38,069 nt of DNA from IMG/VR virus record IMGVR_UViG_3300012933_000331, positions 1 to 38,069 of that record; one strand, written 5' to 3'. A model generated the notes under the pieces. It saw nothing but the letters and a program-made list of their open reading frames with translations, had not been told where the DNA came from and made no database searches. This DNA is from a virus (lineage: Duplodnaviria > Heunggongvirae > Uroviricota > Caudoviricetes). Below are positions 12,049 to 25,133 of this stretch, in pieces (within the stretch, counting starts at the first letter, position 1; each line of letters opens with the position of its first letter). The position numbers and the translations under genes were made by a program.

Positions 12049-12077
12049 ATTATACCACCCCTTTAAAAATATGTCAA
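12049..12077 (-). promoter_or_regulatory. Sigma70 consensus promoter for phoH
   Basis: On the minus strand TTGACA (12077-12072), 17 nt, TATAAT (12054-12049), with TG immediately upstream of the -10; AAGGAAG RBS before the phoH ATG. Confidence 0.88.
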
Positions 12078-12085
12078 ATAAAAAT

Positions 12086-12289
12086 TTACTTAGCCTGTTT
12101 ATCTGGTACTTTTGTGCCTTCAAGCTTTTTGTGGATTTTTACTTCTTTGCAGACTTCTTTTGGCTTTTTGGTTTTAGCGTCCGTTTGCTCAACACAAACC
12201 TTTTTGGTTTCTGCCGCAAATGCTGGATGGTTATAGGACACTAAACATACTACCACTACCATTAATACGCTTCCAATTAATCTTTTCAT
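12086..12289 (-). CDS. Small secreted Lys-rich protein (envelope cluster gene I)
   Basis: MKR + hydrophobic core + AFA|AE signal peptide; two Cys in the mature part (VCVE...EVCKE). Confidence 0.75.
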   Translation of the reverse strand: MKRLIGSVLMVVVVCLVSYNHPAFAAETKKVCVEQTDAKTKKPKEVCKEVKIHKKLEGTKVPDKQAK

Positions 12290-12745
12290 TTAAATCTCCG
12301 GTTGTGGTGCTGGCTGTGGAGCTGGCTTACCATTAATCATTATAACTTGCGGTGCAAAACCAGTGCCATTAAATCCAGCCGTGGTACTTAATCCAGGCGA
12401 AAACGTTGGTTCTTGCTTGGGTACGTAACTGGTTTTTGCTGCAGCAGTGGCGTTGTCTTGCGCTTGCTTCATCATGGCTAGTGTAGCATCTACTTCTTCC
12501 TTGCTTCCACCTGCTAACATAATACCACTTAGCGTACCTGTTAGGAATGTGGCAATTGGTACAATTAGTTCAAAGAACTTTTGATCTATTGGACTAATAG
12601 CGTTTAGTGGTTGTGTTACAAAAATAAGTGAGTAGAGTACCACAAACACAATTCCTGTTAGTGTTAGTGCTAAACAAACACCAATAAAGAATTTTAAACG
12701 AGCCATTAGCTGCTCGTCAGTATATATAAACGAATTATTTGACAT
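12290..12745 (-). CDS. Two-TM membrane protein with Pro/Gln-rich tail (envelope cluster gene H; holin candidate)
   Basis: TM1 FFIGVCLALTLTGIVFVVLYSLIFV, TM2 FFELIVPIATFLTGTLSGIMLAGG; abuts the next gene. Confidence 0.75.
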   Translation of the reverse strand: MSNNSFIYTDEQLMARLKFFIGVCLALTLTGIVFVVLYSLIFVTQPLNAISPIDQKFFELIVPIATFLTGTLSGIMLAGGSKEEVDATLAMMKQAQDNATAAAKTSYVPKQEPTFSPGLSTTAGFNGTGFAPQVIMINGKPAPQPAPQPEI

Positions 12746-13013
12746 CGCAACGCACCTCTGGTTTACCTAGTTGTTGTTTTGCTAAAATGTTTTGGGCTTC
12801 TTCTGGAGGCCCAAGTCGTGGATCACGTTGCCCTTTGAACACGTGCTCTGGACAGGTGCGTGTTACGTCACACTGTGGTTTTTGGCATAGTGGCTTATCC
12901 CAGTTCTGTGGATCTTGACAGGGGTATCGGAATCGGTCACCGCCAAAAAATGCTAGTCCAACGGGCAGTACTAGTAAAAATGCCAGCCATTTTACCATTT
13001 TTAAATCATTCAT
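12735..13013 (-). CDS. Membrane-anchored/exported Cys-rich small protein (envelope cluster gene G)
   Basis: N-terminal hydrophobic segment, then RFRYPCQDPQNWDKPLCQKPQCDVTRTCP (4 Cys). A further Cys (VRCDVK) sits in the part overlapping gene H. Confidence 0.75.
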   Translation of the reverse strand: MNDLKMVKWLAFLLVLPVGLAFFGGDRFRYPCQDPQNWDKPLCQKPQCDVTRTCPEHVFKGQRDPRLGPPEEAQNILAKQQLGKPEVRCDVK

Positions 13014-13014
13014 G

Positions 13015-13578
13015 TTACTTTCCTGCTAGTGGGTTATCAATTGCTTTTTGGATCTTGTCATCCACGCTTCGGTTTAACCTATCAAGCTTTGAATCCGTTT
13101 CGCGCTTTAGTTTATCCATGTCGTCACGAGTACGATCTAAGTTAGCGCGTAAATCTTTTTGCATAAGCTTCAAGTCTTGGTCAGTTTCACGCTGTGCTTG
13201 TTTAACACTGCGCTCTATTTGTTCAGTTACTGACTCAGCACGGCGTATATCTGTTTTTAGGTCGTTTTTAATATCACGAGTGTAATCAGCACCTTTTTGA
13301 CTGTTTTCTTCAATTACCGCAAGGCGTTTATCAAAATCAGTTAGATCAGGTGCAGCATATTCTGAAATCTTTTTCTTCATGCCTACGTAGTCTTTGTAGA
13401 CTTCGAAAGCACCGTATAGTCCTCCAAGAATAGAACTAGCAAGTGTAAAAGCTATCATTAGTTTAGCTGGCGTAAACTCATAACCACCGATGCTAATAAC
13501 CGTATCTTTACTAGCATACTTTTTTGCAGCGGCTTCTAGTTCTTCGACTTTTTTATCTAAATTTTTATTTTCAGACAT
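13015..13578 (-). CDS. Single-TM membrane-anchored coiled-coil protein (envelope cluster gene F)
   Basis: AAGGAG RBS; one TM (LMIAFTLASSILGGLYGAF) followed by about 120 aa of charged heptad-rich helix. Confidence 0.8.
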   Translation of the reverse strand: MSENKNLDKKVEELEAAAKKYASKDTVISIGGYEFTPAKLMIAFTLASSILGGLYGAFEVYKDYVGMKKKISEYAAPDLTDFDKRLAVIEENSQKGADYTRDIKNDLKTDIRRAESVTEQIERSVKQAQRETDQDLKLMQKDLRANLDRTRDDMDKLKRETDSKLDRLNRSVDDKIQKAIDNPLAGK

Positions 13579-13586
13579 TGTGCTCC

Positions 13587-14000
13587 TTATTTGTTGCCTG
13601 AATTTTCAAACTTCAGGTTTTTTAGATTCTGCAACTCACGCTCCAATCGCTGAACTTCTATGCGCTTTTTACGAAGCTCTAATTGGTACAGTTCGTTACA
13701 GTCTAGTCGTTCGCGCGGCGCACCTATAGGAATTGTGATCCTACCATACACACCAACTTCCCTGCCTTGAGCACTTGGGTCAGTTGTAACAGTAGCGGCG
13801 CTACGGTTAATAAGCCCTACTACGCCGAACTCTACGTTGGTACTAGAACCTATAGCCATAGAACAGTCCATGCCGTCCGCACGGAAGCTATCGCTTTGAT
13901 AGCTTCCGTAAGAACCGGGCAAGGATAGATTTAATGAACTTGGATTAGCTGTAGCCAGTATTGGCATAATCAAGGCTAAGCAGCAAAGTAATTTATTCAT
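13587..14000 (-). CDS. Secreted protein with amphipathic beta-hairpin and C-terminal coiled coil (envelope cluster gene E)
   Basis: Signal peptide ending ATA|NP; strands VEFGVVGLIN and VGVYGRITIPIG; two mature Cys; helix ELYQLELRKKRIEVQRLERELQNLK. Confidence 0.8.
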   Translation of the reverse strand: MNKLLCCLALIMPILATANPSSLNLSLPGSYGSYQSDSFRADGMDCSMAIGSSTNVEFGVVGLINRSAATVTTDPSAQGREVGVYGRITIPIGAPRERLDCNELYQLELRKKRIEVQRLERELQNLKNLKFENSGNK

Positions 14001-14377
14001 TGTTTAACTTTTGAACATATTTTAGAAGAAACTACTGTATGAGAAACTTCTTCTTTTCTTAGCCTAGATTCAGTACATATGTAAACTGCTTTAGATAAGT
14101 CTTGCTGCTTTACGTAGACGTTTATCTTTTTTGTTTCTAAGTATCGAACTTGTAAGAGTTTATCTTCGGAAGCGAACGTAACCGGCTGCCAGTCTTTATC
14201 ATAAACCGCTAGCTCATAGTACCCTACCTCTTTTCGTTTATTGAAAAGTTCCAGCTTTGTTTGCATGACTCCTTCTATGTAAGAGGAGTCAAAAACTGGA
14301 TAGGTAGGAGTAAACTGATGAGCACTAGCGGCTGCAGTAATACAAGCTAGTACTAAACCAATTACAGAGCGATACAT
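13997..14377 (-). CDS. Secreted Ig-fold-like protein, possible pilus-chaperone-like (envelope cluster gene D)
   Basis: Signal peptide ending ASA|HQ; alternating beta-strand pattern (LELFNKR, YYELAVYD, INVYVK); two mature Cys; ATGA overlap with gene E. Confidence 0.75.
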   Translation of the reverse strand: MYRSVIGLVLACITAAASAHQFTPTYPVFDSSYIEGVMQTKLELFNKRKEVGYYELAVYDKDWQPVTFASEDKLLQVRYLETKKINVYVKQQDLSKAVYICTESRLRKEEVSHTVVSSKICSKVKQ

Positions 14378-14859
14378 TCTGCTAATACCAGTGCCTTGTA
14401 TTCACCTGCTGGAAATGACTTGTTGTAGCCATATTCCGCTTTTGAGTTGGCCGTAAACCATACTGTGCCAGGCACAGTTAAGTCAAACTCTGTGGTACTA
14501 TTATAAACACGCTTGTTGGTTGTATAAGCAGACATTGCTGCATCTGTTACCTTGCTTACTTCCACGCCACCAGTCCAGTTAACTGCATCAGTTAATGTAG
14601 GGCTAGAAGTAAATGCAGTAGGCACAGTTACTGTGGCTTTGTAGTATCCAGACTCAACAACGTCGAATCTGATAACTGGACTAATACCACCATCTACGCG
14701 AGCTGTGCTCAGTGTATTTGGTGTGGAGTTGCCATATACACCTTGTGTATCTGTGTTAATAACACACTTAGAAGAAACAATACCACGAATAGGTACCTCT
14801 GCACTTTGTGTAGCTAAGCTTAAGCTTAGGGCTAGTGCCATTAATATATACTTAATCAT
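14362..14859 (-). CDS. Secreted fimbrial-pilin-like protein (envelope cluster gene C)
   Basis: Signal peptide; mature N-terminus VPIRGIVSSKCVIN and C-terminus FPAGEYKALVLAECIAL echo the IxGxVxxxxCxI and PAGxYxA(x)V patterns of chaperone-usher/Csu-type pilins; about 145-aa all-beta mature chain. Confidence 0.7.
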   Translation of the reverse strand: MIKYILMALALSLSLATQSAEVPIRGIVSSKCVINTDTQGVYGNSTPNTLSTARVDGGISPVIRFDVVESGYYKATVTVPTAFTSSPTLTDAVNWTGGVEVSKVTDAAMSAYTTNKRVYNSTTEFDLTVPGTVWFTANSKAEYGYNKSFPAGEYKALVLAECIAL

Positions 14860-15730
14860 TTTTTACCTCTGATCTTTTAGTAGGAAATTGGGAGTCAAAT
14901 AGCTTATTGTGTAGCCGCTCTTGAGCGCCTGATAAGCCCCTGCCAGCTTTGTTATCTGGCAATATTTTATCAACATATTTTAAGCTATCTTGATAAGTAC
15001 CGCCTGGTATTTGTCTAGAGTAGCTTGCAAAGTTTGGTATATTATTAAGAGCATTAAAAGCATTGGCCTGGGCTAGTGCTTCTGCTGTTAATAGCGCATT
15101 TTGTACTGCACGGTATTGTTCAACATTACGCTTACGGGCAGCTGTACTATCACGAGCTAACTGTAAAAATATTCTATCTTCTTCTTCTTGAGCTACAGAG
15201 CGTGGAATAGCACTTTTTTGTACATATTCTACTTCTACAGGATCTGTTATTATGGGCGCTAATGCAGGAGGTTTGTAGTTAGGGCAAGTGGAGTCAGTAA
15301 CTGGAGTTAGCTTGCAGGTATCGTAAGTGTAGCCATACATCACAGTTGAATTTTCCACACGACCTGTGCCAGTGGTAGCAATCTCACCACGTCCCCAGCT
15401 TGTTAATGGTATGCTAGCCACAGGAACCGTTTTTGTAATAGTAGTGCCAGGTCTACCTGTCCAACTATCCTGACTGCGAAACACATAACCTGTTTCACTG
15501 GGATTGTAGTTTTGCACACTAACTTCAAAAGCGTCTTCTGGTCGTTTAACTGCAGTGTACCGGTAATTAACAGAATTTACTTCCAGGCCAGTATATTGAG
15601 GCAGTACGTTGGTCATAGTCCACTGCAAACCTACGGCAGCGGCATTTGGAGTTTGACCGGTTACGGTATCACAATAAGAGTAAAAGCAGCAGAGCAGCAA
15701 GACCAGCCCCGCCAAACCACGTTTTATCAT
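14852..15730 (-). CDS. Secreted two-domain protein, possible tip/adhesin subunit (envelope cluster gene B)
   Basis: ORF track 14852..15823; ATG at 15730 exposes the signal peptide MIKRGLAGLVLLLCCFYSYC|DT. Beta-rich N-domain, CKLTPVTDSTCP disulfide motif, Pro-rich linker, helical C-domain. Confidence 0.75.
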   Translation of the reverse strand: MIKRGLAGLVLLLCCFYSYCDTVTGQTPNAAAVGLQWTMTNVLPQYTGLEVNSVNYRYTAVKRPEDAFEVSVQNYNPSETGYVFRSQDSWTGRPGTTITKTVPVASIPLTSWGRGEIATTGTGRVENSTVMYGYTYDTCKLTPVTDSTCPNYKPPALAPIITDPVEVEYVQKSAIPRSVAQEEEDRIFLQLARDSTAARKRNVEQYRAVQNALLTAEALAQANAFNALNNIPNFASYSRQIPGGTYQDSLKYVDKILPDNKAGRGLSGAQERLHNKLFDSQFPTKRSEVKND

Positions 15731-16202
15731 CTGTAGTCCATTCTTTAGAACCCGACTCGCCAGGTTGTTGTTTGGTGTTGGCCTTCCAGCCGGCTTTGGC
15801 TTCTGCACCGATTGTTCCGTCATATGGACAAGGCGTGCCGGCCATCATCATTGCATCAAATACTCTGCGATCTTGACAAAGAGTGCTAACAGCCGCAACT
15901 TTCATGCCCATGTCATAAAGTGTTTTAGAAAGCTTTAGCCGCTCACAGTTCATGTCTTTGACGGTAGAGCCAGCACTAACACCTAAGATTTGTGTTTGTA
16001 CTGCACCTGCTACACCCACAGTACACAAGTCGCTGTTGGCATTGTTTATAGTAGGTGAAATAGCAGATGCTGGCGGCGAACGAACATTTGTATTAGAGTC
16101 ACTGCGAGTAGTTACTGTGCTATTGGTATTTACAACGGCATCTTGTGCATGCACACCGCCAAATACTAGTAGTAAACAAAGTATAAGTATATATTTAAGC
16201 AC
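15669..16202 (-). CDS. Secreted Cys4 protein with C-terminal hydrophobic tail (envelope cluster gene A)
   Basis: GTG start immediately after the endolysin stop, with GGAG RBS; signal peptide VHA|QD; Ser/Thr/Asn-rich linker; four mature Cys; ends WFGGAGLAALLLLLLL. Confidence 0.8.
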   Translation of the reverse strand: MLKYILILCLLLVFGGVHAQDAVVNTNSTVTTRSDSNTNVRSPPASAISPTINNANSDLCTVGVAGAVQTQILGVSAGSTVKDMNCERLKLSKTLYDMGMKVAAVSTLCQDRRVFDAMMMAGTPCPYDGTIGAEAKAGWKANTKQQPGESGSKEWTTDDKTWFGGAGLAALLLLLLL

Positions 16203-16832
16203 TTAGACTCCTAGTACATGTAGTGCATGATTGTAGTGTTTGATGCGATCTTCTAAGCCAATAGTACCACCATTGATACGTTTGGTTAGTGTTAGAATAT
16301 CTCCGGTGTCGGCCCACTGATTCAGCTTATTGGTTTCCCAGAACCAACAAGCACTTTGAGCAGCACCTTCAAATGTTTCCAAGTACTGGGCCGCTTCTTC
16401 AACACTTATTTCTAAGCTAGCTGCAAACCAACTATAGTTGTCTTTGCCTGTTAGCTGGATCAATCCACGACCACAGTAACGATAGCCGTCACCTGACTCA
16501 GGTGGCCCATTGCCCATGCGATTAGCATAAACTAGGTTAGCAATAGCCTGTTGCTTGTTGGGCAGGGCTGCATACTGTTGTGCCATTTCATCTGTGGGAA
16601 AATACTTGGGAAATATTTTGCGAAGCGTTGCGGCACGATAGTTTAAGTTTTCACGGAGAGCAGTAAAGCCAGCAGATTCATGTGCACACTGTGCAATAAA
16701 AGCAGCAATACGTTGTGGCGTATTGATCTCGTAGTCTGGTAACAGCTGTGCTAGTGCTGCATGCCATTGTTTGACATAAGGGTTTTTGGGAATCAGCTGT
16801 TGCAACTCTGAATAGCTTAATTGATGGGTCAT
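16203..16832 (-). CDS. Endolysin, glycoside hydrolase family 19
   Basis: FIAQCAHESAGF, LRENLNY, YCGRGLIQLTGKDNY, SACWFW, TKRINGGTIGLEDR; no signal peptide or SAR. Confidence 0.93.
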   Translation of the reverse strand: MTHQLSYSELQQLIPKNPYVKQWHAALAQLLPDYEINTPQRIAAFIAQCAHESAGFTALRENLNYRAATLRKIFPKYFPTDEMAQQYAALPNKQQAIANLVYANRMGNGPPESGDGYRYCGRGLIQLTGKDNYSWFAASLEISVEEAAQYLETFEGAAQSACWFWETNKLNQWADTGDILTLTKRINGGTIGLEDRIKHYNHALHVLGV

Positions 16833-17095
16833 TTAAGTCCTCTGTGTATTAACTCTTGTTTACGATACCATTCCTGCCAGGCGTCTACTTTAGTAGCGCA
16901 CTGGTAGTACTCGGAGTAATTATCAGCCACAGTTTTAGCAACGTCGCTGAGTTGTGGCGTTTGTGTTAGCGGCTTTAGTGGCGGACAAGGTTGCACACTT
17001 TGCATGCCCGGGGCTTCAGGCCATGTTTGCGTAACTGGCACAACTGTGGTGCATGCACTGAGTGCTACGACTAAGGGTAGTAACATTAGTTTCAT
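16829..17095 (-). CDS. o-spanin (Rz1-like outer-membrane lipoprotein)
   Basis: ATG at 17095 overlapping the i-spanin stop (ATGA); lipobox ALSA|C, Pro-rich segment, C-terminal YYQCATKVDAWQEWY. Confidence 0.85.
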   Translation of the reverse strand: MKLMLLPLVVALSACTTVVPVTQTWPEAPGMQSVQPCPPLKPLTQTPQLSDVAKTVADNYSEYYQCATKVDAWQEWYRKQELIHRGLK

Positions 17096-17511
17096 TTTGG
17101 TGGCTCCGCTGCACGATTGTGTGCAGTAACAAATTCTGGTGGAATCACACAACCAGAGTTGTACTTTGTAACTTCACGATCTATGTACCGAGTTGTTTCT
17201 TCTCCACGTAATTTAACTACTTGTAGTTTAGTGATTAGTCGTTCGCGTATAATTTCATTTGTTTGCTGAGACTTTTGCTCGGCTTGGGCTACTTGGAGCT
17301 CTAGCTCCTGTGCCCTGGCTTGCCAGACCTTATTGCTGTATAACATTCCTGTTAAAAAAATTCCTGCCGCAATGAGTGTAGCGGCAAGAATTTTGATAGG
17401 CAGGTGGAACGCTTTGGCTTGAGGCAAATAGCTCAAGCCAAAGCAGATTATTCCAAGTAATATAGTTGAGGGCCATAACAAGTCTGGAAGAATTTTAAAA
17501 ATCCAAAACAT
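17092..17511 (-). CDS. i-spanin (Rz-like inner-membrane protein)
   Basis: N-terminal hydrophobic segments, periplasmic coiled coil, C-terminal GCVIPPEFVTAHNRAA; adjacent to a lipoprotein and an endolysin. Confidence 0.82.
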   Translation of the reverse strand: MFWIFKILPDLLWPSTILLGIICFGLSYLPQAKAFHLPIKILAATLIAAGIFLTGMLYSNKVWQARAQELELQVAQAEQKSQQTNEIIRERLITKLQVVKLRGEETTRYIDREVTKYNSGCVIPPEFVTAHNRAAEPPK

Positions 17512-17513
17512 TG

Positions 17514-20500
17514 TTAAAATACCTTTATTGCTCCATAATAAATTTCCGAAACCGGCATACTACCATAGTATATGCTAGATATATTTAATGCAGAATAGTA
17601 TATGCTAGAAAGTACTGCGGATAGTATTTGTGCATTTATATAGCTTACGTTTAAATAGTTTGGGCTAGTTCCACTAAAGCTAAGTCCAGTATTATTACCA
17701 CTATCCGTAGAGTTTAATCCAATATTCCAGGCATCTGGTTTCTTTAGTATAGCAGGAGTAGTATTAGTACTGCCTAATTGTAATAAGTTACCAGAAGCAC
17801 CATTTATACTAAAGTTAGTAAACTCATTGGTACTTCCTCCACTGAACTCTATACGACCAATGGCGGTATTAGTTAAATTAGCGAATTTATTAGATCCAAT
17901 AATTGTTAAAGTACCTACACCACCTTGGTTAATAGTAACATCTTGTGCTGTAACTCCTGTACCAAAGTTTAAACTTTTAGCCGTTGAACCATTAGCACTA
18001 ATTGTGCCGGTTCCTGTAACTGAAAGCCCGCCACTAGAAAAATTGAAAATGTTAGTGCTAGAGGCTGTTAACGTAATTGCACTGCCATTACCGAAAGCTA
18101 CAGTTTTAGAGGCTGTGCCTGACCCAGTAATACCACCAGCACTAAATGTAAGAGAATATCCATTACAATCTAAAGTACCTGCTGTAAGCGTACCAAATCC
18201 GCCGTTTGTGGTCATAGCATCCATAAGACGCAAAGAACCTCCAGGAGAATTAATACTTATAATGCCAGTATATGTTTTACCACTACTGGTAAAATTTTGT
18301 ATTGTTCTACCACTAAAAATAAACCCTGTTGCTCCAGTATATGTCGTGCCAGTTCCAGTTATAATATCACCATAGACTGTTGGAGAAACTGAAAAGGCGA
18401 AAGTGTTAGTGTTGGTAGTTCTAGCTGACATATCTATTGTGCCAATATTATATGCAGCAAACATTGTAATAGTACTACCGCTAGCTGGTGAACTAGCCCC
18501 AATAACTGCAGTATCTTGAGCTAGTGGGAAAGCGCTATGGCTTGCCGCTCCGCCTAATGTAAGCGAGAATGTAGGTGTAGCTGTAACACCCCAACTAGTT
18601 TGAGTACTGGACCAATAAACTGTCTTGGGACTATCAAAAGTGATATTACTATTACCCTTACAATCACCAAGTAAAGTACCTATTAAACTGCCGCCGCTAA
18701 CAGCACTGCCTGTAATTGCAATATCCCTAAAATCAATATTAGTTAAAGCAGCTACAGAGTTGCAGGTTAAGGTACGCTGTGTACCGACTGTATTTGAGCG
18801 TAAAAATGTGCGCATATGTGCACCAGTACTACCAGACAGCGTTAATGTACCAGTTACCGTAATATTGCTTGTAACCGCAATTTGATTAATACCTGCTGTA
18901 GTGCGAGCAGCTACGCTTAAGTTACTAATAGACGCTATATTGTCTAATGCGCCAGCACTTGATAAGTTTGGCGCTGTAAACGATATATTGTTAAAGTTCT
19001 GGTTGTTTCCAGAGACTGTTGGTGCAGACACAGAAGACAAATTAATGCTAGAAGTACCAGCACTAAAAGCAAGGCCACCAGATGTACCAAAGTTAATTCC
19101 AGATCCAGATACTGTAACAGTAGAAGAACCAAAGTTTAAGCTACGTGTTAATGAAGAAGTAGAATTTATTGCTGTAGTAGTTACGTTGACATTATTGGTA
19201 TTAAAAGTGCCTTGAGTTATTGTTAGCACGGAAGAGCCATTAGCTAGTGTTCCAGTAATATTTAAAGTACCGCCAGGAGAATATAGCGTAATATTTTGGG
19301 TAAAAGTACGAGATGCTGTAGTCAATCCCTGAGTATTTCTACCTGCAAATGTTAAGGTTCCTGTACCACTAAGAGTAGTTCCTGTACCGTTTATCCAATT
19401 ACCTAAAATTATAGGAGTAGTTGTACCAGTAGCTAATGTCATTGTATTAGTGGTACGACCAGACATATCAACAGTACCAATTAGGTATGATTTATCCAAT
19501 GTAATAGTAGTAGCTGTTGCTGGGTAAGTTGCGGAAGGAAATACTACAGTATCTTGTGCTAAAGGGAATTGAGTAATATCAGCAGTACCACCAATAGTAG
19601 CGGACCAACCTGTTGTAGAACTCCAATTTGACGCTGTCGTAGCTCTGCAATAGACGGTTTTAGGTGTGGTGAAAGTAATGCCTGTATTTCCGCCACCATT
19701 ACCTAATCTAGTACCGGATATATTACCGGCTGTAACAGCATTTCCACTTATACCTATATCCATAAAGTCTACGTCTTGTAAAGTAGACACAGCAGCACAA
19801 GTCAATGTTGATTGAATACCTATGTTAGACGAACCACGTACAAAAGTGCGCATTGTAGCATTAGTTCCAGGAGTTAGGTTTAAAATACCATTAACTACTT
19901 GATCTAACCCCAAACTTAAGGTTTTTACGCCTGCTCCTGTTGTTATTCCGGAAACTGATAAGTTATTAAAAGTATTGCTTCCGTTTAGTGTAACTATACC
20001 CTCAATAGTACCGGTAAAAGATACATTATAAAAAGTTAAGCTTCCACCAAAAAACTGAACATTACCGCTTGGATAAGAGCAAATTATATTAGATGTACCG
20101 GCATCAAAAGCTAAATTTGTAGATGTAGTTAGTGATACGCAACTAGAGGCACTTAATGTAAGCGTAGAAGACCCAAGATTTATTGCGCGAACATTAGTAT
20201 TACTAGAAGACAGTACTGTGGCGGTTACATTATAGTTGTTGGTTGTAAATGTGCCTGAAGTAAGTGTTACAGCGCCGGTAGTAGTAAGTGCATCTAATAA
20301 ACTCCATGTTGCTACACTGGCTCCGGACGCTCCAAACGTAGGGGCGCTTGCACCAAAAGACTTCCCACTGCTAGTAACAGTATGGTTCCCACTAGTGGAT
20401 GCGAATGAGAGGGCTCCGCTACCTGTAACCGTCATTCCAGTTGAAAACTTCCAGGAACCGTATACACTTAGTATTGGAATAGTAAAACTACCAGAAAAAC

Positions 20501-23500
20501 CTGTAAAGTCAAGGCTTCTGATGTCACTAGATGCAGTAATAGTTAGGGCATAAGTGCCAGCGTTTATATTAAAAGATAAACAATTAAGCTCACCCAACGC
20601 ACCTGGACTAACTGTTGTTGCAGTTGCAGTTGCGTTTGATATATTTACAACGCGATTTCCGGAACAAGACATTCCAGTAGTCGTAGGAGTACTCCATACT
20701 GTACCTGTGCCATTTACGGTAATAGTGCCAGTAGATCCAAAATCAATAGCTCTAGCTGTTGAGTTTGATGATGAAAATAGTCCTGATGTAACTGCGTAGC
20801 CGTTTAGGTTTATAGAACCACTAGTTAACGTTAGCGTGCGTGTAGACCCTGCAGTAAGATTAGAGCCTAATACTGCCGTGTTACCAATACCACGATTAAA
20901 GGTAATAGGCATATCTGTAGACTTACCTGCTAGCGATATAGAGACGCTTTGATTTAACCAGGTAGCCCCGGCCACAGTACTGCCACCAAAAGTAAGAGAA
21001 CTAGCGGTTGCTGTTACCAACATTCCTGCGGATAAAGTTAAGTCCCCGTACACTGTAGCAGATGAGTTGGTCCAAACACCACTAAATCCAGTAAAGTCTA
21101 TATTATTCCACTGCCCACCAATTGTAACAGTAGCCGCACCTGAAGTAACACGTAAGTTTGGTGCTGCGGAACTAACCGCTGCTGTGTTACCTACAATAGA
21201 CTGTGCAGTACCAGAGGGCGTATTACCAACAATACGCACCTCTCTAGAGCCGGTAAAAATAGTGGTTGAAGTTGTAGTAAATAATGTTCCAGCAGCAGTA
21301 CTATTTAGGACAATTGCACCACTGTTACCAAAAGCAATAGTGGGAGCCCCAGAAGAAGCAGAAAAAGTAGCTGCAGTAAGTGTATAACTATTTAGATCAA
21401 GGCCCACTGATGAAGATAGCGTTACAGCAGAAGTAACGGCGCAGGCATCTAGTAGTTTTAAATTTCCTGCTCCACTTACTGATAGTGAGCCTGGAAGTAC
21501 CTCTCCAGAGGTAGTTAAATTAGTAGTAAGGCCAGTAGTAGTAACTAGAGTAAAAGAAGTAACATTGGCACCAAAAGTAAGCGCAGACGATAGTGATAAT
21601 GTCTGTCCGTATATTGTCAGGGTCTGAGCTGCTGTTGGATTTAGAGTACCGGAGAATCCTGATAAATCTAAGTTATAGAAACGAGAAGTAGCACTACTAA
21701 TTGATAGTGTGCCAGCCCCAGCAGTAACTTCAAGACTATAAGTAGCCGTGCCGCTAGTAGGCGTAGATACCGTACGTGTCTGCCCTGAAGTAGAGGCTCC
21801 AGTTAGTCTGAATGTAGGGGATGCAAAGAACCCTAGATTAGTGCTAGTGGTAAAGTCAATTACCGAACCGGAAGCGCTTGCTACGTCAATTCTGCCGCCA
21901 GAAGTCCCGTTTATTTGTCGCGAAGCTGTTCCAGACGACAGGAAGGTATTACACGATAAAACATAACCATTTGTACCTAGCGAACCTAGGGAAAGGGTAT
22001 AGTTACCTGTACCGGTATTAACATTGCCTACCAAATTAACACTACCAGATCCATTTTGAATTACGTTTATTGCTGTGGAAGTACCAGATAAGTTTTTAAT
22101 AGTACTTATAGGCGGGGCTATACCTAAACTACCGTATACAGCCGAGCCTAATACAACATCGCCTACAGCAAATGCGCTAGGCATCTGCATCTGCAAAGAA
22201 CTTGTTCTAGCAGAACAATCTATACTACCTACCAATAGTCGATCTGGTACGGAAAATGCACCAACTCCGGTATTAGTAAATACTGCAGTGTCTTGCGGTA
22301 ATGGATAGTCCACGCCAGTAGTAGAACCGCCCGCAGTTAGAGACCAGTTACTATTTGTCCAGTAAGAAGTTGAACCCACCCAGTAAAGTGTTCTTGCAGC
22401 AGGGAATGTAAATCCTGTTACAGCGTTGTTACCACCATCCCCTACACGCGTAATTGTAGGATTATTACCTAAGTGACTTATATCGCAATCTCTAAATGTA
22501 ATATCTTCAAGAACTGTAGTGGCTGCTTGCAATAGCAATGTTGCTCTAGTGCCTTCTACACTTGACTTATAAACTATAGGTGAAGAAGTTCCAACAAACG
22601 AAGTATCTAATTGCCCTATAATAAATGTGCCGTCCGCAGACTGTATGTACTCTCTAACAGTATTAGAGGTGGATACCCCCTTTACTACCAACTTATTAAT
22701 TTGTGTAAGACTACCGCTGTGGAGTAGTGAAACTTTAGTAGCTACAGTAATATCGTTAATGGAAACAGTACCATAGATCTGATCAGTTCCGAAGTCTACT
22801 ATTAGATTAGAGGCTGCTTGAGTAATGTTAAATGTCGCACTACTAGCTGATAGTGTTGTATTATTATCCAATATCCATAAAAATGGAGTACTAGATAAGG
22901 TAACTACGGAAGTACCAAAGTAAATAGTTTTAGCAGGTCCAGTATCAAACTGAAAACAGGCGGCATTTATTAGCCAGTTTCCTGTAGAAACATTACCAAC
23001 TTTAAATACAAGATACCCAGAAGACCTAAATGCACTAGTAAAGTTATACGTATCCGATGTACTTTGTGTAGCAAATATAATATCACCTGGAATAGTTTTG
23101 CCTACAAGGTCTATAGAAAGTCCGGGGCCAGTTCCAGCAAAAGTTAGCGGAGCAGAGGCTACGAGTGACATCCCAGAAGATAGTTTTAAAGATCCGTATA
23201 AGTTTAACGCAACAGAAGCCGACCAAGACCACTGACCACTAAAACCTGTAAAGTCTAAACTACCTAATACTGCTATTTGACCTAACACTGTTGCTGCGCT
23301 ATATGTGCCTGAAAGTAGGCTTACATCTACTGGATTTGTTTGATCTATTCCTGTTGTTGCAGACCAGATTAAACTTCCTGGACTTGCTGAGCTAGCGAAA
23401 GTCACAGATATTTTTGGTCTTCCTGACACTGTTAGATTAGTACCATTACTTATATCTAATAAATTAGTTCTGGCAATATTAGGGGCTAATTTAATTGAGG

Positions 23501-25133
23501 CACCAGTTCCAAAGACTAAAGATCTCGGACGCGTTGCTGAACTACTTGCAAATGAGCCGCAAGTAAATATCTGCGACGCCCCTATATTAAGTGTACCCGC
23601 ATATAGTGTGACGTCTACACCACCACTAATAGTTGCGCTAGATACTGGTGTTAGTGCTCCAGAGCCTAGCATATATATGTCTAGTTTAGCAAAGCCCCCA
23701 AGAGTGCGACCGTTTGTATTTAGCACAAAATCAGAACTACTTCTATTAATAAATAGTAGAGTAGCGGTAGTGCTACTCATACTAACACCACTGCCCAATA
23801 TTAGACCATTAGTAATGGTTAAAGCAAAAGCGTTAATAGTAAGTGCTAAGGTACGCGCAGAAGCATCAATAGATGCCACATAGTACGAATTGTACAATAT
23901 CATTAGCGTACAGCTAGCTGGCCCGGAATAGTTGCCTATTACTACACTATCTTGCGCAAGAGGAAACTGCGTGGGACTAACATCTGCACTAGAGGTTGAG
24001 GATGACCAAATAGAACCATCAGTCCAAGAATTCGCAGAGTTGCTAGATACTAAATATACAGTTTTAGCGGTTGGGAACGTAATACCTGAATTGCCGCCGC
24101 AGTCTCCTAGTCTAGTACCTGATATAGGTGTGGCGGTACCGTTAACTGTAATATCTCTAAAATCAATATCGGTTAGATTAGTACTGCCGTTTAAGCTAAC
24201 TGTTTGTGCTGTACCCAGAACAGTAGCCTTAAGTAGTATACGTTTAGCACCTGAAGAGTTGCTACTACTGGAAAATACTCCATTGACAGTTATTGAATTA
24301 CCGGTATCTATGCTAATTGTTTTTACGTTTGTAGTACCTGTAGCTGTAAGACTTAAATTATTAAATACTGTAATACCTTGAAATATATTAGATTCAGAAC
24401 TTACCGTTAAATTAACGTTATTAAAAGTATTATTACCGCCTTTAAAATTAGTGGCCGTGCCTTGTAGTACACCAGTAATGGTAGAAGTTCCAGCATCGAA
24501 AGTAAATCCTGTAAGCGGTGAGGTACTGGAAATAAAGTCAACTACGGAGGTAGCATTGCCAGCAGTACTGTCTAAGTATACAGTACTAGATCTAAGATAA
24601 ATAGCTCTTGTAGGTCCAAATGAATTAGAAAACAAGGCGCCAGCGGATAACGCGTATCCAGCAGTATCAAATGTGCCTCTAGAAACAAATAGGTTTCTAT
24701 TGGACATATATAATGCATCACCAAGCGCCCATGTTGCAGTAGAAGCTGTAAGCCCAAAGTACACTTGGGAATCTAGAGTTTTTCCGTTCGTAACTACGGT
24801 ATAGTTGCCGGAAGTTGCGGAAAATGTTAGTGAAGGGCCTGAAACCCAATTAAAATTAATATGGCTACTTAAAACTAATCCGCCATATACGTTAACGTTC
24901 TGAGAAGAGTTTCCAGTAAAAGTACCGTTAAATCCAGTTAGATCAAGGTTTAAACAATTTACTACTCCACTAACAGTTACGGTAGCAGCATTACCAGACA
25001 GATTATTAATAAATACATTATCGCTAGCTGTTGGCACGCTTGCACCTGATGTACCTCCAGAAGTAGCTGACCAGTTTGCTGTATTGGTAGTATTCCAGGT
25101 ACCACTTCCACCAACCCAATATCTATCAGCCAT
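17514..25133 (-). CDS. Giant modular Ser/Thr/Gly/Ala-rich beta-helix-like protein, probable virion fibre/adhesin
   Basis: 2539-aa uninterrupted ORF with no signal peptide; repeated motifs RYWVGG/KTVYW, FPLAQD, LDFTGFSG, TRLGDCGGNSGITF; lies in the tail-fibre operon. Confidence 0.85.
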   Translation of the reverse strand: MADRYWVGGSGTWNTTNTANWSATSGGTSGASVPTASDNVFINNLSGNAATVTVSGVVNCLNLDLTGFNGTFTGNSSQNVNVYGGLVLSSHINFNWVSGPSLTFSATSGNYTVVTNGKTLDSQVYFGLTASTATWALGDALYMSNRNLFVSRGTFDTAGYALSAGALFSNSFGPTRAIYLRSSTVYLDSTAGNATSVVDFISSTSPLTGFTFDAGTSTITGVLQGTATNFKGGNNTFNNVNLTVSSESNIFQGITVFNNLSLTATGTTNVKTISIDTGNSITVNGVFSSSSNSSGAKRILLKATVLGTAQTVSLNGSTNLTDIDFRDITVNGTATPISGTRLGDCGGNSGITFPTAKTVYLVSSNSANSWTDGSIWSSSTSSADVSPTQFPLAQDSVVIGNYSGPASCTLMILYNSYYVASIDASARTLALTINAFALTITNGLILGSGVSMSSTTATLLFINRSSSDFVLNTNGRTLGGFAKLDIYMLGSGALTPVSSATISGGVDVTLYAGTLNIGASQIFTCGSFASSSATRPRSLVFGTGASIKLAPNIARTNLLDISNGTNLTVSGRPKISVTFASSASPGSLIWSATTGIDQTNPVDVSLLSGTYSAATVLGQIAVLGSLDFTGFSGQWSWSASVALNLYGSLKLSSGMSLVASAPLTFAGTGPGLSIDLVGKTIPGDIIFATQSTSDTYNFTSAFRSSGYLVFKVGNVSTGNWLINAACFQFDTGPAKTIYFGTSVVTLSSTPFLWILDNNTTLSASSATFNITQAASNLIVDFGTDQIYGTVSINDITVATKVSLLHSGSLTQINKLVVKGVSTSNTVREYIQSADGTFIIGQLDTSFVGTSSPIVYKSSVEGTRATLLLQAATTVLEDITFRDCDISHLGNNPTITRVGDGGNNAVTGFTFPAARTLYWVGSTSYWTNSNWSLTAGGSTTGVDYPLPQDTAVFTNTGVGAFSVPDRLLVGSIDCSARTSSLQMQMPSAFAVGDVVLGSAVYGSLGIAPPISTIKNLSGTSTAINVIQNGSGSVNLVGNVNTGTGNYTLSLGSLGTNGYVLSCNTFLSSGTASRQINGTSGGRIDVASASGSVIDFTTSTNLGFFASPTFRLTGASTSGQTRTVSTPTSGTATYSLEVTAGAGTLSISSATSRFYNLDLSGFSGTLNPTAAQTLTIYGQTLSLSSALTFGANVTSFTLVTTTGLTTNLTTSGEVLPGSLSVSGAGNLKLLDACAVTSAVTLSSSVGLDLNSYTLTAATFSASSGAPTIAFGNSGAIVLNSTAAGTLFTTTSTTIFTGSREVRIVGNTPSGTAQSIVGNTAAVSSAAPNLRVTSGAATVTIGGQWNNIDFTGFSGVWTNSSATVYGDLTLSAGMLVTATASSLTFGGSTVAGATWLNQSVSISLAGKSTDMPITFNRGIGNTAVLGSNLTAGSTRTLTLTSGSINLNGYAVTSGLFSSSNSTARAIDFGSTGTITVNGTGTVWSTPTTTGMSCSGNRVVNISNATATATTVSPGALGELNCLSFNINAGTYALTITASSDIRSLDFTGFSGSFTIPILSVYGSWKFSTGMTVTGSGALSFASTSGNHTVTSSGKSFGASAPTFGASGASVATWSLLDALTTTGAVTLTSGTFTTNNYNVTATVLSSSNTNVRAINLGSSTLTLSASSCVSLTTSTNLAFDAGTSNIICSYPSGNVQFFGGSLTFYNVSFTGTIEGIVTLNGSNTFNNLSVSGITTGAGVKTLSLGLDQVVNGILNLTPGTNATMRTFVRGSSNIGIQSTLTCAAVSTLQDVDFMDIGISGNAVTAGNISGTRLGNGGGNTGITFTTPKTVYCRATTASNWSSTTGWSATIGGTADITQFPLAQDTVVFPSATYPATATTITLDKSYLIGTVDMSGRTTNTMTLATGTTTPIILGNWINGTGTTLSGTGTLTFAGRNTQGLTTASRTFTQNITLYSPGGTLNITGTLANGSSVLTITQGTFNTNNVNVTTTAINSTSSLTRSLNFGSSTVTVSGSGINFGTSGGLAFSAGTSSINLSSVSAPTVSGNNQNFNNISFTAPNLSSAGALDNIASISNLSVAARTTAGINQIAVTSNITVTGTLTLSGSTGAHMRTFLRSNTVGTQRTLTCNSVAALTNIDFRDIAITGSAVSGGSLIGTLLGDCKGNSNITFDSPKTVYWSSTQTSWGVTATPTFSLTLGGAASHSAFPLAQDTAVIGASSPASGSTITMFAAYNIGTIDMSARTTNTNTFAFSVSPTVYGDIITGTGTTYTGATGFIFSGRTIQNFTSSGKTYTGIISINSPGGSLRLMDAMTTNGGFGTLTAGTLDCNGYSLTFSAGGITGSGTASKTVAFGNGSAITLTASSTNIFNFSSGGLSVTGTGTISANGSTAKSLNFGTGVTAQDVTINQGGVGTLTIIGSNKFANLTNTAIGRIEFSGGSTNEFTNFSINGASGNLLQLGSTNTTPAILKKPDAWNIGLNSTDSGNNTGLSFSGTSPNYLNVSYINAQILSAVLSSIYYSALNISSIYYGSMPVSEIYYGAIKVF
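17514..25133 (-). repeat. Five large internal protein repeats (about 350 aa) plus about 190-200 aa sub-repeats
   Basis: Module-start motifs near 25120, 24055, 22385, 19655 and 18620; LD(F/L)(T/S)GFxG motifs near 24940, 23255, 21665, 21095 and 20505. Confidence 0.75.

Follow-up and report, generated by a model that had tools for sequence, protein, structure and literature searches.

Pelagiphages carry a curli type VIII secretion module that has been exchanged between Myoviridae and Podoviridae (Wittmers et al. 2022, PMC9599517). Judged by analogy, this module is the nearest published counterpart in kind of the locus described here, a run of nine genes (A to I) in IMG/VR virus record IMGVR_UViG_3300012933_000331, and in particular of its first six genes, the A-F cassette. 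The record is a complete phage genome of 102,069 bp with direct terminal repeats, and the window, meaning the whole stretch of DNA that we analysed, is its first 38 kb (38,069 nucleotides). Like the curli modules, A-F is a multi-gene set of exported proteins found in aquatic phages, with a fixed gene order and a history of movement between unrelated phage families. Curli, however, has clear bacterial ancestors and a pore, whereas the A-F cassette has neither, and the two are not homologous. A preliminary description of the locus had called it parallel to phage-borne csgF/csgG genes without recognisable homology. The exported set is of the same kind and holds no CsgG, CsgF or CsgA homologue; CsgG had no match at E ≤ 1 in the complete genome, and no Csg family was among the Pfam matches of A to I.

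Other described systems resemble parts of the cassette. With the chaperone-usher pathway (PapD/FimC; archaic Csu/SCPU and CS1) it shares an immunoglobulin (Ig) fold of the fimbrial-subunit type in protein C, where one Cys lies close to either terminus, a protein D folded like the first chaperone domain, and a modelled strand complementation geometry between the two. It differs in that D has one domain rather than two (PapD_N plus PapD_C) and no PapD_N sequence homology, C lacks the N-terminal extension, no usher is present, and the genes belong to lytic phages. Protein F recalls the two-component spanins (lambda Rz/Rz1) in its N-in single transmembrane segment, periplasmic coiled coil and conserved C-terminal end, and the cassette often lies among lysis genes. 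Unlike a spanin gene pair, however, A-F includes no lipoprotein partner, the phage already owns an Rz/Rz1 pair, and close relatives do without the cassette. Exclusion and masking proteins such as T5 Llp and T4 Imm and Sp are likewise optional, exported or membrane-bound, and free of enzymatic domains. T5 llp adjoins its receptor-binding gene much as the cassette follows fibre genes, a likeness in kind only. Llp, Imm and Sp are single small proteins rather than a six-gene set, and none has detectable homology to A-F.

The nine-gene run is composite. One part is a resident lysis cassette of i-spanin, o-spanin, endolysin, G, H and I; the other, A-F, is an optional mobile insert between the endolysin and G. 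The resident genes were constant across 58 distinct related loci that hold both endolysin and G, and the slot between these two varied. It was empty, with the genes adjacent, in 10 loci, held one other small gene in 19, A to F without C-D-E in 11, and the full A-B-C-D-E-F set in 18. Gene I follows H in relatives whether or not they have A-F. More than 594 viral relatives of H were found by a contig scan, again beside spanins and endolysin, with or without A-F. In a single 166-kb T4-like contig, the lysis cassette lacks A-F (locus L146) and A-F lies about 25 kb away (L034).

A viral-contig scan with E returned 50 loci in which A-B-C-D-E-F occur in the same order wherever the contig reaches. This order is kept across T5-like, T4-like, terminase-proximal and DnaB-proximal contexts. 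Only in the lineage of the window is A-F joined by the endolysin, the spanins, G, H, I and phoH; in other loci the cassette is flanked by T4-type DNA polymerase and UvsX, by terminase and portal, or by DnaB helicase.

These neighbourhoods change the picture drawn in the preliminary description, which had treated the nine genes as one unit translationally coupled to the endolysin. G, H and I sit in a lysis cassette that occurs without A-F in many relatives, so a single nine-gene unit is not tenable. Since A-F is found elsewhere, standing alone in T4-like phages, and is absent from many lysis cassettes, the coupling to the endolysin is a lineage-specific accident. The preliminary description had also said that it would fall if the genes did not travel together; A-F do travel together, as a cassette of conserved order.

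The cassette is itself divided into a frame, A-B-F, and an insert, C-D-E, each of which exists alone in other phages. We searched other loci with profile hidden Markov models built from our own alignments of the six families. Pelagibacter phage HTVC115P has A, a long form of B, and F (gp54, gp53 and gp49), with other small genes or nothing between them. The same three genes without C-D-E occur in several phage contigs binned into metagenome-assembled genomes (MAGs). Only A and F were found by profile search in Roseobacter phage CRP-810 and a freshwater podovirus. Conversely, Vibrio phage Bennett (a T5-like Thalassavirus) has C, D and E (gp148-150) and no A or F anywhere in its genome. The A-B-F and C-D-E versions usually lie between fibre genes and lysis genes. 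Because each module occurs without the other, the six genes are not one obligate machine. The composite, modular structure and the chaperone-subunit likeness of C and D are well supported, and we consider it highly probable that they hold jointly.

The preliminary description had called C pilin-like and D chaperone-like, and ESM Atlas comparisons bear this out. By features C was placed next to SCPU, DUF4402 and Fimbrial_CS1 clusters at 0.93-0.95, and the nearest structure was DUF4402 (TM-score 0.53). A Pfam scan of C at E ≤ 1 returned only DUF7604 at 0.041, under its cut-off, and no fimbrial family. The alignment covers 18 C proteins, and in each of them only about 11 residues of the mature chain precede the first Cys; these residues form the first strand. 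None of the 18 has an N-terminal donor extension, so C cannot form a donor-strand-exchange polymer and could serve only as an end-piece. D, with a mature chain of 107 residues in a single domain, matched a PapD_N-only cluster (TM-score 0.76) and a two-domain fimbrial chaperone (0.69). The mature chain of D starts at residue 20 with a His that is invariant in 27 of 27 aligned sequences (AHQF..PTYP).

C and D are also predicted to interact, in keeping with the pilin-like subunit and the chaperone-like protein of the preliminary description. We modelled mature C with mature D, each with its own alignment, in three runs. The complex scored 0.74 (runs 0.73-0.75) against 0.01 for the best control. 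As a calibration, 58 of 80 solved complexes reached the mark, as did 2 of 110 mismatched pairs, counts that are rough because our own alignments were used. Partner predicted local distance difference test (pLDDT) was 88, and at least 89% of contacts were common to the runs. D strand 112-123 lies against C 153-165 (parallel) and C 29-36. Residues 116-123 of D pair with 158-164 of C with indices rising together, hence in parallel, and D 118-120 pairs antiparallel with C 32-35. The last strand of D is thus placed between the first and last strands of C, parallel to the last, which is the geometry of donor-strand complementation. Such strand geometry is the hallmark of PapD/FimC chaperone-subunit complexes. 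D residues 20-26 are in the interface, and the C-terminus of C touches the invariant Thr25 and Tyr26 and the near-invariant Lys123 of D.

As modelled, the C-D pair would work like a chaperone-subunit complex yet outside the chaperone-usher pathway, and could not build a conventional pilus, since D has one domain and no PapD_N homology, C lacks the extension, and the genome has no usher. At E ≤ 1 the complete genome of 102,069 bp gave no match to the usher family PF00577, in a search that was positive in an E. coli control, and none to the secretin family PF00263. The largest cassette protein is 292 aa. With no usher, secretin or CsgG, the cassette does not encode an ordinary surface pilus, and since C also lacks the extension, a filament is unlikely. 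Literature searches found nothing on DUF4402 and nothing relevant on phage-encoded chaperone-usher pilins.

The genes themselves are real. All nine open reading frames (ORFs) are present on the minus strand where the preliminary description had placed them (Table 1), and they overlap or lie within 8 nt of each other: endolysin-A 0, A-B -62, B-C -8, C-D -16, D-E -4, E-F +8, F-G +1, G-H -11 and H-I 0 nt. The start codon of A is a GTG at the base that follows the endolysin stop, preceded by AGGAG. The start of B is upheld over a longer ORF from 15823, because 25 homologues share the start position. Proteins of the run are found at 30-89% identity in well over 100 further viral loci, conservation that marks the run as true genes. 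The 62-nt A/B overlap (15669-15730) is about 65 nt in the relatives inspected; its DNA encodes the poly-Leu tail of A in one frame and the leader of B in the other. This double use may explain why the LLLLLLL end of A is near-invariant.

Every product is predicted to be exported or membrane-anchored, as first proposed, with leaders in A to E, a transmembrane segment in F and hydrophobic segments in H. These calls were made with leader heuristics and conservation. Family alignments of A, B, C, D and E show conserved N-terminal hydrophobic leaders that end in small-x-small motifs. The mature Cys counts claimed earlier stand, except in G, which has 5 and not the 4 first reported: A has 4, and B, C, D, E and I have 2 apiece. 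Nine consecutive exported products are far beyond chance for the late region of a tailed phage.

Table 1. Features of the lysis region and of the A-F cassette, with window coordinates
Feature	Position	Strand	Basis or remarks
i-spanin (Rz-like), opens the resident lysis cassette	17092..17511	-	PHROG 312 Rz-like spanin E=1e-4, PHROG 4952; N-terminal transmembrane segment
o-spanin (Rz1-like lipoprotein)	16829..17095	-	PHROG 456 Rz-like spanin E=2.9e-7; lipobox LSAC after MKLMLLPLVVA
endolysin, GH19/chitinase-like	16203..16832	-	PHROG 181 endolysin E=3e-75; Pfam Glyco_hydro_19 E=7.8e-5
A, outer bookend of mobile cassette	15669..16202	-	leader, spacer, 4-Cys domain, hydrophobic tail
B, jelly-roll head and helical C-terminal region	14852..15730	-	AlphaFold2 model, family alignment
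C, pilin-like Ig-fold subunit	14362..14859	-	ESM Atlas features and structure, alignment, C-D complex model
D, single-domain PapD_N-like half-chaperone	13997..14377	-	ESM Atlas TM-score, complex model
E, third member of C-D-E module	13587..14000	-	family alignments, poor AlphaFold2 monomer
F, inner bookend of mobile cassette	13015..13578	-	transmembrane segment and coiled coil, alignment
G, resident lysis-cassette gene	12735..13013	-	N-terminal hydrophobic segment, 5-Cys periplasmic domain
H, best holin candidate of the phage, resident lysis-cassette gene	12290..12745	-	two hydrophobic segments
I, small secreted Lys-rich protein with 2 Cys, resident lysis-cassette gene	12086..12289	-	kept after H
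perfect sigma-70-type promoter-like site	12049..12077	-	TTGACA, 17 nt, TATAAT, with TG; 12/12 matches

The other cassette proteins have recognisable layouts and no named family. Pfam gave nothing above curated cut-offs for any of the nine proteins, and per-member scans of the E and A families gave scattered chance matches only. Profile searches of the PDB with the C, D and A families returned nothing meaningful, and protein searches with B and C found nothing among cultured phages. A viral-contig scan with B returned no relative, because the B patterns are too variable. None of A-F has a paralogue elsewhere in the genome.

Protein A has a short Ser/Thr/Asn-rich spacer, a near-invariant 4-Cys domain (about residues 42-140) and a C-terminal GG..LLLLLLL tail. 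Identity among relatives is 56-82%, and A falls in PHROG 20531 (function-unassigned). Roseobacter and Ralstonia phages also have A, and the core is 50-60% identical in Pelagibacter phages. Other phages have A proteins of 297-389 aa, owing to a much longer spacer.

Protein B has a leader, a jelly-roll head (residues 22-140), a variable charged or disordered linker and a conserved helical C-terminal region. The head has eight strands, modelled by AlphaFold2 with pLDDT >90. Its matches (Foldseek, VIA-align) were generic jelly-roll, lectin, carbohydrate-binding module, tumour necrosis factor-like and phage tail parts at Z 7-8, none >8, so no specific family can be named. The head has no sequence relative among the phage's own fibre proteins. 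B is among the least conserved members (30-53% identity), and this divergence would suit a ligand that differs between hosts. Its long-form homologues in the A-B-F version have 466-634 aa. The preliminary description cast B as a tip adhesin; the head is indeed of a type found in lectins and phage receptor-binding parts.

Protein E has a leader, a conserved N-terminal SLNLxLP strand motif, a beta hairpin, 2 Cys and a C-terminal helix (101-129) that usually ends in Lys. The SLNLxLP motif has alternating Leu, with L25 and P28 invariant, and the region is disordered in the monomer model. ESM Atlas holds no E model, and AlphaFold2 folded the monomer poorly (pLDDT 58), as a hairpin and a C-terminal helix. 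E had earlier been proposed as an outer-membrane pore subunit, a proposal that gains no support, given the low pLDDT, the missing lipobox and the lack of any sign of a barrel. E is about 35% identical in 183 Vibrio phage records, and phage Bennett has C- and D-like genes beside it. In most E proteins a terminal Lys directly follows the coiled-coil helix. Braun's lipoprotein likewise ends in Lys, which is cross-linked to peptidoglycan, a likeness that serves as a lead only.

Protein F is predicted, in agreement with the preliminary description, to be an inner-membrane coiled-coil protein. The alignment shows a cytoplasmic N-terminus, one transmembrane segment (40-58), a periplasmic coiled coil whose length varies and, at the C-terminus, an invariant DNPL motif. 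This layout and the variable length of the coil suggest a periplasmic stalk. F matched HTVC115P gp49 at E=7.8e-44. It had no spanin family match, and its sole PHROG match was 18138 (function-unassigned, E=0.0049). In CRP-810, gp51 (L055:7141-7632) is annotated as a lysozyme and is an F homologue (transmembrane segment and coiled coil, ending NPLGR), not a muramidase. Just upstream of gp51, in the o-spanin position, is an 87-aa lipoprotein weakly similar to half of the A domain (E=3.8e-4).

We propose the following mechanism. All six products would be exported by Sec, as their leaders and paired Cys suggest. D would cap C with its C-terminal strand, held between the first and last strands of C and parallel to the last as in the model, and C would be an end-piece. 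E, with its alternating-Leu strand and coiled-coil helix, is a candidate to take C from D and oligomerise. F would be a coiled-coil stalk anchored in the inner membrane, B a divergent jelly-roll head on a helical tail, and A a disulfide-bonded domain on a hydrophobic C-terminal tether. Together A-F would make a periplasmic, inner-membrane-anchored complex with binding heads, produced late and dispensable for lysis.

There are several possible ways in which a phage could use such a complex. The best overall explanation in our view, towards which we lean with limited confidence, is a composite run carrying an optional exported cassette with an envelope-protection role. What that role consists of is a guess that we hold a little more doubtful than probable: at the envelope, the cassette may guard infected cells or progeny through superinfection exclusion or through receptor masking on cells and debris. 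A bolder form of the idea is that A-F is a widespread, phage-only envelope device of an undescribed kind in aquatic lytic phages. In it, strand donation without an usher would pass C from D to E as a coiled-coil adaptor, F would be the stalk anchored in the inner membrane, with B as its variable lectin-like head and A as a tethered disulfide domain, and the whole would span the periplasm. Such a device would shut the envelope to competitors or control the fate of progeny at release. We regard this bolder joint claim as rather unlikely. If it were true, a textbook principle of assembly, donor-strand complementation, would be seen at work in a new setting, without an usher. Control of superinfection, receptor masking or release by the cassette would matter for phage competition and for the survival of progeny at lysis in oceans and lakes. 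The natural variants at one site (empty slot, A-B-F, A-F) provide a ready-made comparison.

An accessory role in lysis or release is the leading rival, although we judge it rather unlikely. A-F would then act on the envelope at the end of infection, as a second spanin-like bridge (F with E, A or B), by tuning holin or endolysin, or by breaking or shedding the outer membrane. The nesting of the cassette within the lysis cassette, here and in 29 distinct related loci, is what such a role would lead one to expect, as is its position next to genes for lysozyme or holin-like proteins in MAG contigs and unrelated podoviruses. The i-spanin architecture of F, the small lipoprotein of CRP-810 in the o-spanin position, and the late-type promoter motifs of T4-like contexts also fit. 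On the other hand, 10 distinct relatives with this lysis cassette have an empty slot, the endolysin directly adjoining G, and in a further 19 the slot is taken by one other small gene alone. The window phage already owns an Rz/Rz1 pair, none of A-F has a lipobox (no lipobox Cys was found at the cleavage sites of A-E), and the T4-like, terminase-proximal and DnaB-proximal cassettes lie far from lysis genes. Module boundaries beside lysis genes are, moreover, a common landing place for accessory genes.

The remaining alternatives fare worse. The surface appendage or trans-envelope machine of the preliminary description, with C as a polymerising pilin, D its chaperone, E a pore, B a tip adhesin and F an anchor, draws on the pilin-like and chaperone-like folds, the predicted C-D complex, the adhesin-type head of B and the published precedent of curli in pelagiphages (PMC9599517). 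It is improbable, because C lacks the N-terminal donor extension and so gives no donor-strand-exchange polymer, and the 102-kb genome lacks usher, secretin and CsgG. In addition, E is a hairpin and helix with no sign of a barrel, A-B-F and C-D-E occur separately, and G-I are not part of the cassette. Very improbable is a module for uptake or metal handling, in which the N-terminal His of D would bind metal in the manner of a histidine brace and serve nutrient scavenging beside phoH. The His is invariant at mature position 1 and phoH does neighbour the cassette in this lineage, but the nearest folds of D are PapD_N and MSP and not CopC- or YcnI-type, residues 20-26 of D are part of its predicted contact with C, the position beside phoH is specific to the lineage, and no transporter is present. 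Least probable of all, to the point of near exclusion, is that A-F are ejection or tail-accessory proteins of the virion at the end of the structural module. The cassette does follow fibre genes in several phages. Virions of tailed phages, however, assemble in the cytoplasm, whereas five of the six families conserve cleavable leaders and paired Cys, and the cassette is optional among close relatives and common to myo-, sipho- and podovirus-type backgrounds.

Several observations weigh against an envelope-protection role or against the chaperone-subunit likeness on which part of our model is built. The repeated placement in or beside lysis genes (in the window, L063, L070, L071, CRP-810 and the Manatee Spring podovirus) fits a lysis-linked role equally well. 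D had no match to Pfam PF00345 at E ≤ 1, by hmmscan or by a six-frame search of the genome, and hhalign of the D family against 11 PapD_N domains of E. coli K-12 gave a probability of 0.2%. The high score of the C-D pair may in part be model memory of solved chaperone-subunit complexes, and would then speak for likeness rather than binding. E folded so poorly that its proposed role is guesswork. T4 imm and sp, known exclusion genes, are early genes, and the cassette, unlike them, looks late in two backgrounds. Finally, the L027 and L045 backgrounds have host-type promoters, so the timing of the cassette is not uniform.

Late expression is suggested by the surroundings of the cassette. From the fibre gene to I, a consensus scan found only weak sites (promoter-like at 9/12; terminator-like stems with 3-4 G-C pairs), and in the window the cassette appears to be read through from the late genes. 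The perfect promoter-like site of Table 1, the only 12/12 match in 16 kb, has an extended -10, lies between I and phoH just upstream of phoH, and marks the downstream end of the run. Most T4-like contexts have a CATAAATA motif 69 nt upstream of A, and two other T4-like contexts have TATAAATA at -40 relative to A. The T4 late promoter is TATAAATA, and both motifs resemble it.

The families are widespread. A has more than 8000 homologous metagenomic clusters at 90% identity, named only 'hypothetical protein' and without a Pfam match. D has 1333 clusters at 90% identity and F has 540 at 50% identity (E ≤ 1e-3; 1.84 billion representatives). When 185,579 species genomes were scanned with A, every hit was a MAG contig. 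These contigs carry assignments to unrelated phyla, and we read them as binned phage contigs; since this taxonomy is mixed, the scan allows no host assignment. Among 400 sampled Gammaproteobacteria, the E and D profiles found none beyond one phage-contig MAG and one marginal D match (E=0.006). These distributions suggest that the cassette is restricted to phages, where it is common to myo-, sipho- and podovirus-type backgrounds. The families occur in phages of SAR11, Roseobacter, Vibrio and freshwater hosts, which are major aquatic bacteria. A-F have no Pfam match above curated cut-offs, no solved relative, and PHROG matches that are all function-unassigned.

The preliminary description had held the spanin pair to be already accounted for, and both genes, with the lipobox of the o-spanin, were confirmed beside a GH19-type endolysin. 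From its likely ATG at 17095, the o-spanin gene shares 4 nt with the end of the i-spanin gene; the ORF as listed begins at a TTG at 17152, and o-spanin homologues have 86-89 aa. In relatives too, the i-spanin lies beside the o-spanin and endolysin. More than 70 loci keep H together with spanins and endolysin. Neither Pfam nor PHROG gives H a holin match; in PHROG it falls in the function-unassigned family 25359, and with its two hydrophobic segments it is the putative holin of this phage. T4-like relatives have an extra membrane protein of 74-77 aa between H and I (L143:2670-2903, L146:7513-7737), weakly matched to PHROG 1322 (membrane protein); the window lacks this protein, and its H and I genes adjoin directly. 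Another protein absent from the window, of 160-170 aa with an amphipathic N-terminus and a C-terminal hydrophobic segment (L107:6263-6751, L083:6177-6689, L071:10370-10852), fills the endolysin-G slot or lies inside or just after the A-B-F version. It belongs to PHROG 32327, and PHROG scans of the extra slot genes in relatives gave function-unassigned families only.

The wider genome encodes a J-like central tail fibre protein, further tail-fibre genes and a PhoH gene, and an upstream ORF of 655 aa is read as a putative ribonucleotide reductase. A DNA search of the region against cultured phages matched the endolysin alone, and no close cultured phage was found. At 17514-25133 on the minus strand is a gene for a protein of 2539 aa with several long internal repeats, presumably a giant fibre. 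It had zero PHROG matches, and neither its C-terminal 495 residues nor its N-terminal 500 have a relative in 50 related loci. The spanin genes that adjoin it, unlike its termini, are conserved in those 50 loci.

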